Shown here one piece after another: positions 20,612-23,139 of a DNA stretch of 39,944 bases. The position numbers were made by a program, and so were the translations under genes. The stretch is from a virus, in the UHGV virus genome UHGV-0147509; one strand, given 5' to 3'. Each line of letters starts with the position of its first letter. The stretch's first letter is position 1. The notes under the pieces were generated by a model. It searched no databases, had not been told where the DNA came from, and worked only from the letters and a program-made list of their open reading frames with translations.

Positions 20612-20878
20612 ATGGACGAATCAAGAAAGCAGTTTGAAGAATGGTTTGAAAATTACACCGGATGTGATCCTAAAAATAAAATATACGCCAATATGGTTGA
20701 GATGTATTGGCAAGCGTGGCAGGCATCGCGAGCAGCTATCGAGATTGAGTGTCCTGGAAAAAGAGAGCGTGAGGCATTTTCTACCGATTTCGAGGATGGG
20801 GTCACATTTGGTTATAACGACGCAATTAGTGAATGCGAAGGACGGATTCGCGCCGCTGGAATCAAAGTGAAGGAGTGA
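20612..20878 (+). CDS. hypothetical nin-region protein
   Basis: 88-aa ORF with ATG start. Confidence 0.5.
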   Translation: MDESRKQFEEWFENYTGCDPKNKIYANMVEMYWQAWQASRAAIEIECPGKREREAFSTDFEDGVTFGYNDAISECEGRIRAAGIKVKE

Positions 20879-20880
20879 GT

Positions 20881-21045
20881 ATGAGCGCATACGAAGAAAT
20901 CATGTTAGCCCTGCGATTCTTTTTCGGTGTGGAAGAAGATGAAAACGTAAATGAGATTATCGGGCAAGACCATGACCCGATAGGGACTATTGCAGCTGCA
21001 CTTGACGATTACAGGAGCGTAAATGGTGAGGAAACTAACGTTTGA
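20881..21045 (+). CDS. hypothetical small protein
   Basis: Internal ATG of ORF 20833..21045, directly after the upstream stop; overlaps the next gene start by 23 nt. Confidence 0.35.
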   Translation: MSAYEEIMLALRFFFGVEEDENVNEIIGQDHDPIGTIAAALDDYRSVNGEETNV

Positions 21046-21613
21046 ACTAAGAAGCCCCATCCATCAGCAAAACGCTATTCACGCAGTACAGCAAATCCTT
21101 CCAGACCCAACCAAACCAATCAATCAAATAACTCAGCAGAGACTAAAAGAAGTCCTTCTCTACGATGAGTTAACAGGGAAATTCACATGGAAAGTAAAGA
21201 AATGCCAGAGAATGAATGCTGGGGATATCGCAGGGCATAAGAGTAGCGAAGGCTACTGGGTAATAAAAGTCGATGGAAAACTTTATAAGGCACACAGGCT
21301 GGCGTGGCTCTATATGAATGGCAGTCTACCAAAAAGTGATATCGACCACATAAATCTCGTTAGGGATGACAATCGTATAGCAAATCTTAGATTGGCAACT
21401 CGATCTCAAAACATCCAAAACGTAAACAAAAAGGCAAATAACAAATCAGGATATAAAGGCGTTTCATGGGATAAGAAATCAAGAAAATGGAGGGCGCAAA
21501 TCGTAATCAACAAGAGGAAAGTTAATCTTGGGTTTTACGATGACCCAAAGGAAGCTCATAAAGTATATGCAAATAAAGCGGATGAATGTTTCGGCGAATT
21601 TGCGAGGTATTAA
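21023..21613 (+). CDS. HNH homing endonuclease with AP2 DNA-binding domain, fused in frame to the N-terminal ~31 codons of ninB
   Basis: N-terminus KLTFELRSPIHQQNAIHAVQQILPDPTKPI matches recalled lambda NinB N-terminus; remainder carries HNH-like (AHRLAWLYMNG ... DHINLVRDDNRIANLRLATRSQN) and AP2-like (YKGVSWDKKSRKWRAQI) motifs. Confidence 0.75.
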   Translation: MVRKLTFELRSPIHQQNAIHAVQQILPDPTKPINQITQQRLKEVLLYDELTGKFTWKVKKCQRMNAGDIAGHKSSEGYWVIKVDGKLYKAHRLAWLYMNGSLPKSDIDHINLVRDDNRIANLRLATRSQNIQNVNKKANNKSGYKGVSWDKKSRKWRAQIVINKRKVNLGFYDDPKEAHKVYANKADECFGEFARY

Positions 21614-21614
21614 A

Positions 21615-22043
21615 ATGAAATGTGTCAAATATCACCTTACTAATGAATCTATAAGATATAACGCCATTCAGTATCTTAGGACATGCGATTTAGACATCAT
21701 TGTCGAGTTTAAGCAACGCAACCGCAGCTTAGACCAAAACAGAAAGCTATGGGCCTGCTTAGGTGACGTCTCGCGTCAGGTTGAATGGCATGGTCGCTGG
21801 CTGGATGCAGAAAGCTGGAAGTGTGTGTTTACCGCAGCATTAAAGCAGCAGGACGTTGTTCCTAACCTTGCCGGGAATGGCTTTGTGGTAATAGGCCAGT
21901 CAACCAGCAGGATGCGTGTAAGCGAATTTGCGGAGCTATTAGAGCTTATACAGGCATTCGGTACAGAGCGTGGCGTTAAGTGGTCAGACGAAGCGCGACT
22001 GGCTCTCGAATGGAAAGCGCGATGGGGAGACAGGGCGGCATGA
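21615..22043 (+). CDS. ninB: NinB recombination protein, C-terminal portion (split gene)
   Basis: ATG at 21615, 2 nt after the HNH stop, with GAGG SD; from ...[37 protein letters not shown] onward matches recalled lambda NinB residues ~32-146; first ~27 aa are unrelated. Confidence 0.75.
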
Positions 22044-22216
22044 GACGACAGCGACGAAGTATCACCGACATCATCTGCGAAAACTGCAAATACCTTCCAA
22101 CGAAACGCTCCAGAAATAAACGCAAGCAAATCCCAAAAGAATCTGACGTAAAAACCTTCAACTACACGGCTCACCTGTGGGATATCCGGTGGCTAAGACA
22201 TCGTGCGAGGAAATGA
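22040..22216 (+). CDS. ninE: NinE
   Basis: [58 protein letters not shown] is near-identical to recalled lambda NinE; ATG overlaps the ninB stop. Confidence 0.8.
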
Positions 22217-22578
22217 CAATGGATTATTCACAGTTAAGTGATTTTGAAATTAACGTGGCGGTATTCGAAGCCATTCATAACGGATCACCGGATTACAAAG
22301 AAGGTGAGAATGGCGATATGGTGTTTGTCTCATTTGAGGGAGACATTGTAAACGGAGACGCAGTTGAAGTAGAAGTTGAGCGCGGATCCTTTAACCCATG
22401 CGCAAACCCAGCAGACGCATGGCCGATTATTGAAAAATACAGGATTAGCATTATCAATCTCGATGAAGACGAGTGGGGTGCACGCGGTGTGGCCTACTGT
22501 AAATCTAAGCGAGCTATACATGAAAATCCCCTCCGCGCCGCCATGATTGTCTTTCTCATGATGCAGAGAATCCAATAA
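22213..22578 (+). CDS. NinX-like (DUF2591-type) protein
   Basis: ATG at 22213 with GAGGAAA SD (track start is an upstream GTG at 22177); family assignment from recalled motif PCxNPxDAWPII, unverified. Confidence 0.45.
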
Positions 22579-22757
22579 TGCTTAGCCCATCCCAATCCAT
22601 TCAATACCAGAAAGAAAGCGTCGAGCGAGCTTTAACGTGCGCTAACTGCGGTCAGAAGCTGCATGTGCTGGAAGTTCACGTGTGTGAGCACTGCTGCGCA
22701 GAACTGATGAGCGATCCGAATAGCTCAATGTACGAGGAAGAAGACGATGGTGATTAG
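22578..22757 (+). CDS. ninF: NinF-like small zinc-binding protein
   Basis: 59-aa ORF not in the ORF track; CANCGQK...CEHCC cysteine pairs; size and position as lambda NinF. Confidence 0.65.
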   Translation: MLSPSQSIQYQKESVERALTCANCGQKLHVLEVHVCEHCCAELMSDPNSSMYEEEDDGD

Positions 22758-23139
22758 CCGATACGGACAAATAACGTTTAAACATTTTCAAGACAATCCA
22801 ACATGGGCTGCTGCGGCTGGATATGACTTTAATTATTTTGATTGTCTGTCAGTCGCATGTATTGCAACTACCAATGTTGCTAACAACATAATCGATGAAT
22901 TCTTGGATTTTCCAGACTGTCAGGTCAGAGAGTTGCCTGCATTTTTTGTGAAAGTATCTGTTGCTACAGCTCTGTTATTTATTTTGTTATTCGCATATCC
23001 ATTGCTTGCCGTATTTGTTTATGTGAGATGCAAGCACTCACAAAAGGAATACAGCGGAGAGCATACCGATATTACCAGCCAAAATATGCGAGTGTGGTTG
23101 AGGAGATGCCAAGAGAAATGGGGGAGAAGTCATGGCTAA
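22747..23139 (+). CDS. hypothetical membrane protein (nin-region moron)
   Basis: 130-aa AT-rich ORF overlapping the ninF end by 11 nt; hydrophobic helix VSVATALLFILLFAYPLLAVFVYV. Confidence 0.45.
   Translation: MVISRYGQITFKHFQDNPTWAAAAGYDFNYFDCLSVACIATTNVANNIIDEFLDFPDCQVRELPAFFVKVSVATALLFILLFAYPLLAVFVYVRCKHSQKEYSGEHTDITSQNMRVWLRRCQEKWGRSHG

Follow-up and report, generated by a model that had tools for sequence, protein, structure and literature searches.

An HNH-AP2 endonuclease gene and a replacement 5' segment inserted together into a lambda-type ninB gene

In the stretch of phage DNA analysed here (UHGV virus genome UHGV-0147509; 39,944 nucleotides, referred to below as the window), the coding sequence of a lambda-type ninB gene is interrupted by an open reading frame (ORF) for an HNH-AP2 endonuclease. 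Does such a locus still encode an intact NinB and, if so, from which parts is the protein assembled? A preliminary description proposed either that a free-standing homing endonuclease had split ninB into two separately translated parts or that a group I intron carrying the endonuclease is spliced out to restore the protein. The central observation, a homing-endonuclease gene (HEG) inside ninB, holds; the view of ninB as a split or intron-interrupted gene does not.

The ninB locus and its empty site

The locus comprises the following features, given in positions of the window.

20881–21045, + strand: small upstream gene of 54 amino acids (context; gene call in L008/L009, the same phage)
21013–21017, + strand: Shine-Dalgarno (SD) sequence AGGAG of the original ninB start, now serving the endonuclease fusion ORF (read from sequence)
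21023–21613, + strand: fusion ORF of 196 amino acids, ninB remnant plus HNH endonuclease (ORF, alignments, Pfam)
21023–21121, + strand: resident lambda/HK022-type ninB remnant, first 33 codons (alignments to JEP4, HK022 and MB06231 ninB)
21122–21716, + strand: inserted cassette, 595 bp (junction comparison of insert-bearing and insert-free loci)
21122–21613, + strand: coding part of the HNH-AP2 endonuclease, fusion residues 34–196 plus stop codon TAA at 21611–21613 (tblastn, AF2)
21284–21412, + strand: HNH_3 nuclease motif, fusion residues 88–130 (Pfam PF13392, Foldseek)
21446–21568, + strand: AP2-type DNA-binding domain, fusion residues 142–182 (Pfam PF00847, structure match)
21604–21607, + strand: SD sequence GAGG for the chimeric ninB, within the 3' end of the endonuclease gene (read from sequence)
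21615–21716, + strand: foreign ninB 5' replacement segment, 34 codons (profile match to distant NinB N-termini)
21717–22043, + strand: resident lambda-type ninB body, chimera codons 35–142 plus stop (nucleotide identity)
21615–22043, + strand: chimeric NinB/Orf gene, full length, 142 amino acids (Pfam NinB, AF2, Foldseek)
22040–22216, + strand: ninE (context; Pfam NinE, 143.7 bits)

The small upstream gene, of which the empty-site prophage L022 has a 100% identical copy, overlaps the ninB start with its stop codon. A spacing of 5 nt separates AGGAG from the ATG at 21023, from which the fusion ORF runs without a stop from 33 NinB-type codons (MVRKLTFELRSPIHQQNAIHAVQQILPDPTKPI) into an HNH_3 plus AP2 protein. 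The NinB-like start of this ORF had been recognised before at about 31 codons; alignments identify 33 codons of lambda/HK022-type NinB, which match Pfam NinB positions 2–31 with 17.2 bits and contain no stop or frameshift in any of the 14 copies. As also described earlier, the remainder of NinB lies in the next ORF, in another frame and behind its own SD sequence and start codon: GAGG is 7 nt before the ATG at 21615, and the ORF ends with its stop at 22043. A single nucleotide separates the endonuclease stop from this ATG (TAA-A-ATG), and the ninE start in turn overlaps the ninB stop (ATGA). A promoter and terminator scan found no signal above chance within the cassette.

Comparison with relatives that lack the insert revealed a clean empty site. 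The 595 bp at 21122–21716 stand in place of 18 bp (GTAGTAACCATTCAGGAA) of uninterrupted ninB, a net gain of 577 bp and close to the initial estimate of roughly 580 bp, and displace resident ninB codons 34–39. Cassette length and junction are identical in 13/13 insert-bearing loci, and the 18 bp are present at this place in 118/118 insert-free loci. At the insertion point (marked here by a slash), insert-free lambda-type ninB reads ...CCAACCAAACCAATC/GTAGTAACCATTCAGGAACGCAACCGC..., and the region from -24 to +38 around it, a candidate target, is almost invariant in 142 empty sites. In L022, 219 bp upstream are 100% identical, with the alleles switching within about 52 nt of the junction; together with the 118 empty sites, this prophage shows that genomes which are otherwise homologous differ in whether the cassette is present at this one exact site. 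The three-piece BLAST matches that suggested a methylase insert at the same place of ninB in other phages were set aside, as annotation puts the methylase downstream of ninB.

The cassette consists of 492 nt of endonuclease ORF, a 1-nt spacer and 102 nt of ninB coding sequence, so that 594 of its 595 bases are coding. Its two parts, the endonuclease and the variant NinB N-terminus, always co-occur; neither was seen without the other. The cassette is a complete HNH-AP2 HEG followed by a foreign 34-codon ninB 5' segment with its own SD sequence and ATG.

The endonuclease part corresponds to an entire enzyme. By tblastn, residues 1–3 to 163 align with the whole length of free-standing phage HNH endonucleases of about 161–172 amino acids at approximately 50% identity, and these homologues begin at fusion residue 34–36. 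This whole-length match bears out the earlier proposal of a free-standing HNH-AP2 HEG lodged inside ninB. HNH_3 (PF13392) scores 60.8 bits against a cut-off of 24.8. D108, H109, N117, N121, and N133 are invariant across 65 homologues, and the HNH motif aligns with that of I-HmuI, to which the predicted structure is matched by Foldseek (1u3e_M; probability 1.00, 96 columns). AP2 (PF00847) scores 29.4 bits, under its cut-off of 33.3, and the AP2 part of the model matches the AP2 domain structures 7et5 and 1gcc (probability 1.00, rmsd 1.3–2.0). AF2 assigns pLDDT values of 91–98 to blocks spanning fusion residues 41–196 and 61–79 to the remnant, which in the predicted structure is a low-confidence appendage of the endonuclease. 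The remnant supplies the sole canonical start codon of the ORF, and it is solely because no other is present that we infer use of the ninB ATG by the endonuclease. In the three annotated prophages read (of eight found), PGAP called the 33-codon remnant an "HNH endonuclease pseudogene" and started the enzyme at ATA or ATC. Two scans of IMG/VR for a free-standing copy of the endonuclease outside ninB found none and returned the same 12 ninB-embedded loci.

A full-length chimeric NinB

The first ~27 codons of the downstream ORF had been taken as unrelated to NinB. They belong to a diverged but genuine NinB N-terminus: against a profile of 19 distant NinB N-termini the variant segment scores 28.5 bits, versus a maximum of 8.3 in 2000 shuffles, and the lambda NinB N-terminus scores 26.9 bits on the same profile. 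The variant N-terminus aligns in register with many distant NinBs and lacks the same four residues as many of them; the chimera is 142 amino acids long versus 146. Because these codons are NinB sequence, lambda-type DNA homology resumes only at 21717 (CGCAACCGC, codon R37). Of the two breakpoints proposed earlier, the left one, after ...PTKPI, was thus placed correctly and the right one, at IVEF, was not.

The ORF at 21615–22043 matches PF05772 over profile positions 4–131 of 131 with 157.3 bits (cut-off 23.8), a score to which the N-terminal 34 residues contribute 15.6 bits (141.7 without them). AF2 models the 142-residue protein with a pLDDT of 90.6, the N-terminal blocks (residues 1–30) reaching 91, 97, and 93, and Foldseek aligns the model with lambda Orf (1PC6, 1pc6_A) over 141 columns (E 6.8e-17, TM 0.58). 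From the resumption of homology onward, the ninB body shares about 97–99% nucleotide identity with the ninB genes of JEP4, HK022, and MB06231. Residues of lambda Orf that have been probed by mutagenesis are Q45, K48, W50, R103, V106, and W137 (PMC4118853); in the alignment, all six positions fall in this nearly unchanged lambda-type body. The downstream ORF alone is a full-length chimeric NinB, and the 33 upstream codons are a redundant duplicate. Since NinB is complete with its replacement N-terminus and its own SD sequence and ATG, splicing is unnecessary.

Distribution of the cassette and a second cassette at the 3' end

The cassette was found in 8 of 5426 complete E. coli genomes, about 1233 of which match ninB, in 12 IMG/VR contigs and in 0 of 50,697 phage records; the exact chimeric NinB protein occurs on 284 contigs from E. 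coli and Salmonella. The element is rare, at a frequency that is low for efficient drive and counts against homing. The sequence context of the cassette varies, with at least 10 distinct versions upstream and 7 downstream, and the remnant beside it may be lambda-type, HK022-type or chimeric. Polymorphisms comprise six synonymous and one non-synonymous change in the HEG and three synonymous and no non-synonymous changes in the variant N-terminus; judged from these counts, the endonuclease is under purifying selection. The same layout, with the remnant in frame, recurs at locus L171 in a copy of 69% protein identity (P0285), whose diverged variant N-terminus reads MKTIRYHLIDE. Chimeric left arms occur also in 3–4 of 18 insert-free HK022-type loci, so the allele switch beside the junction is compatible with ordinary recombination. 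For this reason we dropped co-conversion as proof of homing, with which it is merely consistent.

Analysis of related (Stx) phages revealed a second cassette that mirrors the first. It consists of a foreign ninB body and a second HNH gene (HEG2, of NUMOD4-HNH type) fused to the last nine codons of ninB. HEG2 is unrelated to the first HNH gene and sits at the opposite end of ninB in the same design; at loci L012 and L165–L170, the two cassettes together replace the entire gene. All four combinations of ninB N-terminus and body were found, which points to frequent exchange at the RNRS patch, and at L171 and L012 the type of the remnant differs from that of the ninB body. The arrangement at L012 (HEG1-foreign ninB-HEG2) may represent the ancestral donor form, although the type II body is also paired with a lambda-type N-terminus (P0183), and the affinities of the variant N-terminus do not discriminate (14/27 identical residues with P0189; 13/31 or 15/34 with P0047, depending on the alignment).

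It is tempting to speculate that both ends of lambdoid ninB have been colonised by natural "home-and-rescue" elements, which would each combine a HEG with a diverged, cleavage-immune replacement for the displaced segment and with recycled translation signals; we give this view about an even chance. At the 5' end these signals would be the start codon and SD sequence; at the 3' end they would be the stop codon together with the coupling to ninE.

Proposed homing, competing explanations and known systems

We consider it likely that a homing-endonuclease cassette that compensates for its own insertion has invaded a lambda-type ninB at this locus. The anatomy, the homologies, the full-length NinB, the population distribution and, from the polymorphism counts, purifying selection are the established parts of this model. 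The cassette would have brought a complete endonuclease gene minus its own start codon, followed by the foreign copy of the ninB 5' end. The resident 33 codons would thereby provide the endonuclease with a ribosome-binding site, a start codon and an N-terminal tag, and the foreign 5' segment would join the resident body to yield the complete 142-residue NinB, which is probably translationally coupled to the endonuclease. Lambda-type ninB without the insert would be cut by the endonuclease in or close to the strongly conserved sequence of the junction, and the insert-bearing allele would act as template for repair of the break. Homology arms would be provided by the 99-bp remnant and the 327-bp ninB body, both of them common to every lambda-type ninB, regardless of its mosaic flanks. 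The insert-bearing allele would be immune to its own endonuclease because the 18 bp are absent and the replacement segment is only about 50% identical in DNA, a divergence that would also prevent loss of the cassette by recombination between repeats. We infer the nuclease activity, target site and homing of the HNH-AP2 protein; the conserved candidate target, the spread into many backgrounds and purifying selection point indirectly to homing.

A less favoured and, in our judgement, unlikely explanation is that the cassette is a passive module of the mosaic nin region, moved about by recombination of the general or the Red/Erf type. In that case the HNH protein would be inert, or a recombination or packaging accessory that works with NinB, and not a homing enzyme. 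Its nearest relatives argue otherwise, being free-standing endonucleases found at differing sites across lytic phages, and the combination of HNH and AP2 marks a recognised homing-endonuclease family (PMC10448857). Passive shuffling would accommodate the low frequency of the element, the recombinant ninB 5' haplotypes that exist without the insert and the four combinations of N-terminus and body with their frequent exchange at the RNRS patch. It also draws support from the varied roles of HNH genes in lambdoid phages, which the literature advances as a caution (PMC12315714). Set against these points are the precise presence or absence of the cassette at one conserved site, the location of the replacement segment exactly where target immunity is required, the second, unrelated HNH gene of the same design at the other end of ninB, and purifying selection on the endonuclease.

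Instead of being foreign, the variant N-terminus might have arisen by tandem duplication of the resident ninB 5' end, with rapid divergence after insertion. Selection against repeat recombination and self-cleavage would favour such divergence, and searches beyond the cassette recovered no donor gene with the variant N-terminus, N-terminal identities reaching about 40–50% at best. Among phages, the only tblastn match was a weak one, to the beginning of NinB in Citrobacter phage Omnitron; when 40 amino acids were used as query in a word-indexed protein search, only truncated copies of the same cassette came back; and a scan of genome contigs recovered lambda-type ninB only. A duplicate nevertheless seems quite improbable, as the variant N-terminus shares 8/34 residues with the lambda-type and 13/31 to 14/27 with other NinB clades (P0047, Omnitron, P0189) and lacks the same four residues as many distant NinBs. 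Moreover, only synonymous polymorphisms are seen in it today, a pattern that gives no hint of rapid change in the protein.

That NinB is assembled from a 33-residue N-terminal piece within the fusion and a separate C-terminal piece is very unlikely. Phage Aeh1, whose nrdA is split by mobE, would serve as the precedent. A precedent for phage genes split by endonucleases is cited in the literature (PMC10448857), and this, together with the lambda-type N-terminal codons that stay in frame in all copies, lends some appeal to this earlier proposal. By Pfam, AF2, and Foldseek, however, the downstream ORF already has the whole NinB N-terminus; its 142-residue model folds confidently as a single chain, the remnant is modelled with the low pLDDT given above, and at L171 and L012 remnant and body are of differing types.

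Hardly credible is a group I intron or intein whose removal would restore a lambda-type NinB: although a conserved gene is hit, the upstream "exon" runs in frame into the endonuclease and the joining of ...PTKP to the downstream part would give a lambda-like protein length, a scan of 20700–22300 with Rfam 15 at E ≤ 10 detected no Intron_gpI or other ribozyme (its sole match being a chance CRISPR-DR57, E 0.6), the insert codes in two ORFs over all but one of its bases and so leaves no room for a ribozyme core, its 3' part is a genuine NinB N-terminus with its own SD sequence and ATG, kept even in the 69% copy, and the fusion ORF cannot be an intein because it stops at the TAA at 21611–21613, with the downstream part in another frame.

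A search of the accessible literature found no paper describing the ninB-HNH arrangement of the cassette. In the intronless homing of T4-like phages (SegF/SegG, MobE), a free-standing endonuclease lies beside or within a conserved gene, the flank of which is co-converted, and the endonuclease-bearing allele differs at the target. Unlike these cases, ninB is neither merely polymorphic at its target nor split; its N-terminal segment is duplicated, with the foreign copy functional and the native copy recycled. The enzyme itself resembles the free-standing phage HNH-AP2 endonucleases (ICP1 gp59/gp209-type, Felixounavirus, T1-like) in domain order, in approximately 50% whole-length identity, in the invariant catalytic residues and in the I-HmuI and AP2 folds. 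Phage endonucleases lie in or next to conserved genes of DNA metabolism and are polymorphic in presence or absence (PMC10448857), as is the ninB HEG. It differs from the free-standing enzymes in having no start of its own, being read as a 33-residue fusion from the invaded gene, and in that its cassette carries a replacement piece of that gene.

A similar design is that of the mobile-ORF hybrids of fungal mitochondria, in which an endonuclease ORF arrives with a foreign, diverged end of the host gene. The gene stays intact, and the native end is left as a remnant, sometimes in phase with the mobile ORF (PMC3630166). Examples are atp6 of Allomyces macrogynus (Paquin et al. 1994) and atp6, atp9, cox2, and nad3 of Glomus (PMC3630166). 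The 5' ninB cassette shares this design in mirror image, with the N-terminal end replaced, and the 3' cassette of the Stx phages has exactly the fungal layout and orientation. In contrast to the fungal hybrids, the 5' ninB remnant lies upstream and provides the signals for initiating translation, the element resides in a bacteriophage, and its enzyme is of the HNH kind, not one of the fungal elements' endonuclease types. Judged from its sequence, the enzyme belongs to the HNH_3-AP2 phage family, and the resemblance is one of design, not ancestry.

Two further cases share features with the cassette. The methylase gene of actinophage ShiLan contains a "hidden" out-of-frame HNH insertion that is neither an intron nor an intein (PMC11855218) and, like the present insert, lies inside a phage gene and was recognised by the same kind of negative tests. 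In ShiLan, the insert is read through as part of the methylase gene in a different frame, whereas the ninB insert ends the upstream frame and restarts the gene with a spare N-terminus. In DUF968 proteins, an entire Orf domain is followed by a zinc-finger HNH at the C-terminus, and each protein is regarded as one functional nuclease (PMC4118853). They too carry NinB/Orf-like sequence and an HNH motif on one polypeptide; in the fusion described here, insertion has, as a side effect, joined only 33 NinB residues to the N-terminus of an unrelated HNH_3-AP2 enzyme. We rejected the "Orf fused to HNH" of that report, which belongs to the unrelated DUF968 family, as an instance of the same arrangement.

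Our analysis corrects the reading of this locus, in which NinB is intact and neither RNA nor protein splicing need be invoked, and exposes a recurrent mis-annotation of the remnant and endonuclease. If homing is real, a phage endonuclease has been made harmless by carrying a spare part of its target gene and borrowing the target's start codon, a spare-part design previously described for fungal mitochondrial mobile ORFs. The same design has been re-invented in synthetic rescue-type gene drives. The ninB-cassette system is experimentally tractable in E. coli. The 3' cassette of the Stx2 phages suggests that one origin of within-gene mosaicism in lambdoid phages is the replacement of part of a gene, driven by an endonuclease. 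Should the two-ended "home-and-rescue" view be true, it would add a third route to harmless gene insertion beside introns and inteins and would provide a direct mechanism for the intragenic mosaic joints of lambdoid phages.

The ninB locus and its insert

The genome is that of a metagenome-derived, P22-like lambdoid phage; an ENA scaffold of 39.9 kb that bears the same 196-aa protein carries Sf6-type terminase and P22 portal genes. The features of the ninB locus are as follows.

21023–21613, + strand: fusion ORF, 196 aa, nin region
Fusion residues 88–130: HNH_3 (Pfam, 60.8 bits)
Fusion residues 142–182: AP2 (Pfam, 29.4 bits, slightly below cut-off)
21615–22043, + strand: NinB ORF, 142 aa, beginning one base past the fusion ORF (Pfam NinB, 157.3 bits, profile positions 4–131 of 131)
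Overlapping the stop of the NinB ORF: ninE

Codons 1–33 of the fusion ORF are of lambda/HK022-type NinB, aligning to residues 1–32 of JEP4 and HK022 NinB, and the DNA of this remnant is near-identical to the HK022-type allele of L022, an insert-free prophage of E. coli MB06231. The Pfam matches, these alignments and the L022 DNA confirm the preliminary description of a NinB-like start on the HNH ORF with NinB in the next ORF. Comparison of 13 insert-bearing and 118 insert-free loci from IMG/VR, E. coli genomes and phages revealed that the insert is exactly 595 bp (window 21122–21716) in every insert-bearing locus and stands in place of 18 bp, GTAGTAACCATTCAGGAA. It forms a cassette of three parts.

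Part 1: endonuclease coding sequence, 492 nt including stop
Part 2: spacer, one base
Part 3: replacement N-terminus, 102 nt, preceded by GAGG inside the 3' end of the endonuclease gene

Elsewhere in the window (22747–23139), a 130-aa ORF with a hydrophobic stretch, ATALLFILLFAYPLLAVFVYV, is flanked by ninF on one side and a YbcO-family gene on the other; the matching loci L008 and L009 have no Pfam family on record for it.

Completeness of the downstream NinB

The 142-aa protein aligns over its full length with lambda-type NinB (146 aa). Its variant N-terminus (the first 34 residues) shares only 8 of 34 residues with the lambda type, and these codons had been taken as unrelated to NinB. That claim fails on several counts. 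Removing the 34 residues lowers the Pfam NinB score from 157.3 to 141.7 bits, a loss about equal to the 17.2 bits that lambda's own N-terminus scores alone. An exhaustive search through 1.84 billion representatives brought up numerous distant NinBs (40–60% identical) that are in register with the 142-aa query from residue 4–8 on. Against a profile made from 19 distant NinBs, N-terminal columns only, the variant N-terminus scores 28.5 bits and that of lambda 26.9, with a maximum of 8.3 bits among 2000 shuffles. An AlphaFold model from a 78-sequence alignment has a mean pLDDT of 90.6 (91/97/93 over residues 1–30), and Foldseek aligns it with lambda Orf (1pc6_A) over 141 columns (E 7e-17). By sequence comparison, other NinB clades have similar N-termini, as in Citrobacter phage Omnitron (FHLVNESVKQNAINYIRQ) and protein P0189 (YLLRNESIRTNAINHLRN). 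The first 34 residues thus form a true NinB N-terminus. Contrary to the split proposed earlier, the 142-aa ORF by itself encodes a whole NinB, and ninB is not in two parts.

An intein is ruled out, as the fusion ORF stops at TAA and the downstream part lies in a different frame. The preliminary description also allowed for a group I intron. An Rfam 15 E-value scan of 20700–22300 detected neither a group I intron nor a ribozyme of another kind, its sole match being a chance CRISPR-repeat (E 0.6). Because the whole insert is coding except for one base, there is no space for a ribozyme core, and this possibility is likewise ruled out. What stands of the earlier interpretation is the free-standing homing endonuclease.

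The endonuclease and its distribution

The endonuclease part aligns, from residue 1–3 to its end and at about 50% identity, with complete free-standing HNH endonucleases (~161–172 aa) of Felixounavirus, T1-like and Klebsiella phages. In a 65-sequence alignment these homologues start at fusion residue 34–36, so that the junction falls where the enzyme would naturally begin; all that it lacks is a start codon. The catalytic D-H...N...N residues are invariant among the homologues. Together with the HNH_3 and AP2 domains, the end-to-end homology identifies the insert as a free-standing homing endonuclease, for which nuclease activity and homing are predicted. The enzyme belongs to HNH-AP2, a known family of free-standing phage homing endonucleases (PMC10448857). 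The fusion ORF sequence contains no canonical in-frame start ahead of M64 beyond that of ninB, and no SD is present near the cassette junction; we therefore infer that translation begins at the ninB start and that 33 NinB residues are fused to the enzyme. A structural model of the fusion gives the enzyme block pLDDT values of 91–98 from about residue 41 and matches structures of I-HmuI and of AP2 domains; the remnant, with one helix, is a flexible appendage (pLDDT 61–79).

At three loci (L004:2500-3087, L005:2465-3052 and L006:2501-3088), RefSeq/PGAP labels the 33-codon remnant an incomplete 'HNH endonuclease' pseudogene and places the beginning of the endonuclease CDS at ATA or ATC; despite this annotation, the endonuclease frame is unbroken from the ninB ATG or GTG.

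Occurrence of the cassette and its NinB
Complete E. coli genomes: cassette in 8 of 5426
IMG/VR contigs: cassette in 12
Phage records: cassette in 0 of 50,697
All contigs: exact 142-aa NinB on 284 contigs, E. coli and Salmonella

The endonuclease and the variant N-terminus always co-occur and are never separate. Upstream of the cassette at least 10 different contexts occur, downstream 7, and the remnant in front of it is lambda-type, HK022-type or chimeric. Across 14 copies, polymorphic sites are 6 synonymous and 1 non-synonymous in the endonuclease and 3 synonymous and 0 non-synonymous in the replacement segment; both are under purifying selection. The remnant is in frame in 14/14. A much older relative exists on locus L171 (3001-3614), a diverged copy of the whole arrangement in which a diverged NinB-type remnant, MRKQTFEIRTPLVQQNAIRTIQQLYPDLGKE, is in frame with a 69% identical endonuclease (P0285), followed by TGA-A and a diverged replacement N-terminus (MKTIRYHLIDE...). 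This shared design indicates that the layout is conserved and no recent accident. The L171 contig runs only 35 nt past the stop, leaving the remaining ninB beyond its end.

Right-arm SNPs at 50, 66 and 68 nt past the resume motif (window 21767–21785) are common to 4 of 13 insert-bearing loci and occur in 0 of 118 insert-free loci, and NinB ends in ...ARFGDAA at several insert-bearing loci (L010, L011, L013, L020); these could be traces of a donor allele or a lineage effect. Lambda-type ninB at L143–L163 lies on contigs of ~48.4–48.5 kb or on very short low-coverage ones, in assemblies of unrelated organisms (Pseudomonas, Oceanobacillus, Shewanella, Bradyrhizobium, Nocardioides, Veillonella, Paenibacillus and others) and is most likely contaminating phage-lambda control DNA.

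Proposed homing and a mirror-image 3' cassette

L022 and the window are 100% identical over 219 bp upstream (20851–21069). Past 21069, in the last ~52 nt up to the junction, five positions in L022 are HK022-type and differ from the window, which at these shares its alleles with most other cassette copies. This switch looks like co-conversion; because similar chimeric arms occur in 3–4 of 18 insert-free HK022-type loci, we count it only as consistent with homing. The stretch from −24 to +38 is almost invariant across 142 empty sites, which makes it a plausible recognition site. The anatomy of the cassette, its unity and distribution, and the completeness of NinB are established. In the homing that we propose, the enzyme would cut or nick insert-free lambda-type ninB near the junction, and repair would copy the cassette across, with homology arms provided by the 99-bp remnant and the 327-bp ninB body; all lambda-type alleles have both, however mosaic the flanking DNA may be. 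An allele that already carries the insert would be immune, since it lacks the 18 bp and its replacement segment has only ~50% DNA identity to the remnant; so low an identity would also guard the cassette against loss through recombination between repeats.

In related phages, a second cassette occupies the 3' side of ninB (L164:2501-3512; L012:2488-3487, − strand; L165–L170). L012 and six further loci (L165–L170) have three elements in a row; the exact P0182 protein was read on 22 contigs.

First: remnant-endonuclease fusion
Second: 134-aa NinB, the same variant N-terminus with a very different 'type II' body
Third: 200-aa NUMOD4-HNH_3 endonuclease, ending in nine codons (KARWGDRVA) and a stop that make up the 3' end of lambda-type ninB

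The type II body and second endonuclease also follow a lambda-type N-terminus (P0183, locus L164). There, the lambda-type 5' end (41 codons) joins the foreign body; homology to lambda-type ninB ends at ...CGCAACCGCAGC and returns ~30 nt ahead of the ninB stop. The 3' cassette is found in 77 of 5426 E. coli genomes and in 63 phage records; most of these are of Stx2a phages, and Stx2 phage 86, P27 and Lahn2 are among them. Some loci have both cassettes, and the whole ninB is thereby replaced. All four combinations of N-terminus and body exist, joined at a short conserved RNRS patch that appears to be the recombination joint of the 5' and 3' modules. At window 21717–21728, the codons R-N-R-S, there CGCAACCGCAGC, are the only ninB sequence common to all four.

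The ninB cassette differs from endonuclease-split genes, from the ShiLan out-of-frame insertion (PMC11855218) and from DUF968 Orf-HNH fusion proteins (PMC4118853). It resembles the mobile-ORF gene hybrids of fungal mitochondria (Allomyces atp6; Glomus atp6/atp9/cox2/nad3; PMC3630166), in which an endonuclease accompanies a foreign duplicate of one gene end and the native end persists as a remnant; their orientation mirrors that of the window cassette and is the same as that of the 3' cassette. No description of the ninB-endonuclease arrangement was found in the literature searched. We regard the cassette, whose anatomy is well supported and whose nuclease activity and homing are putative, as a variation on an established type of selfish element.
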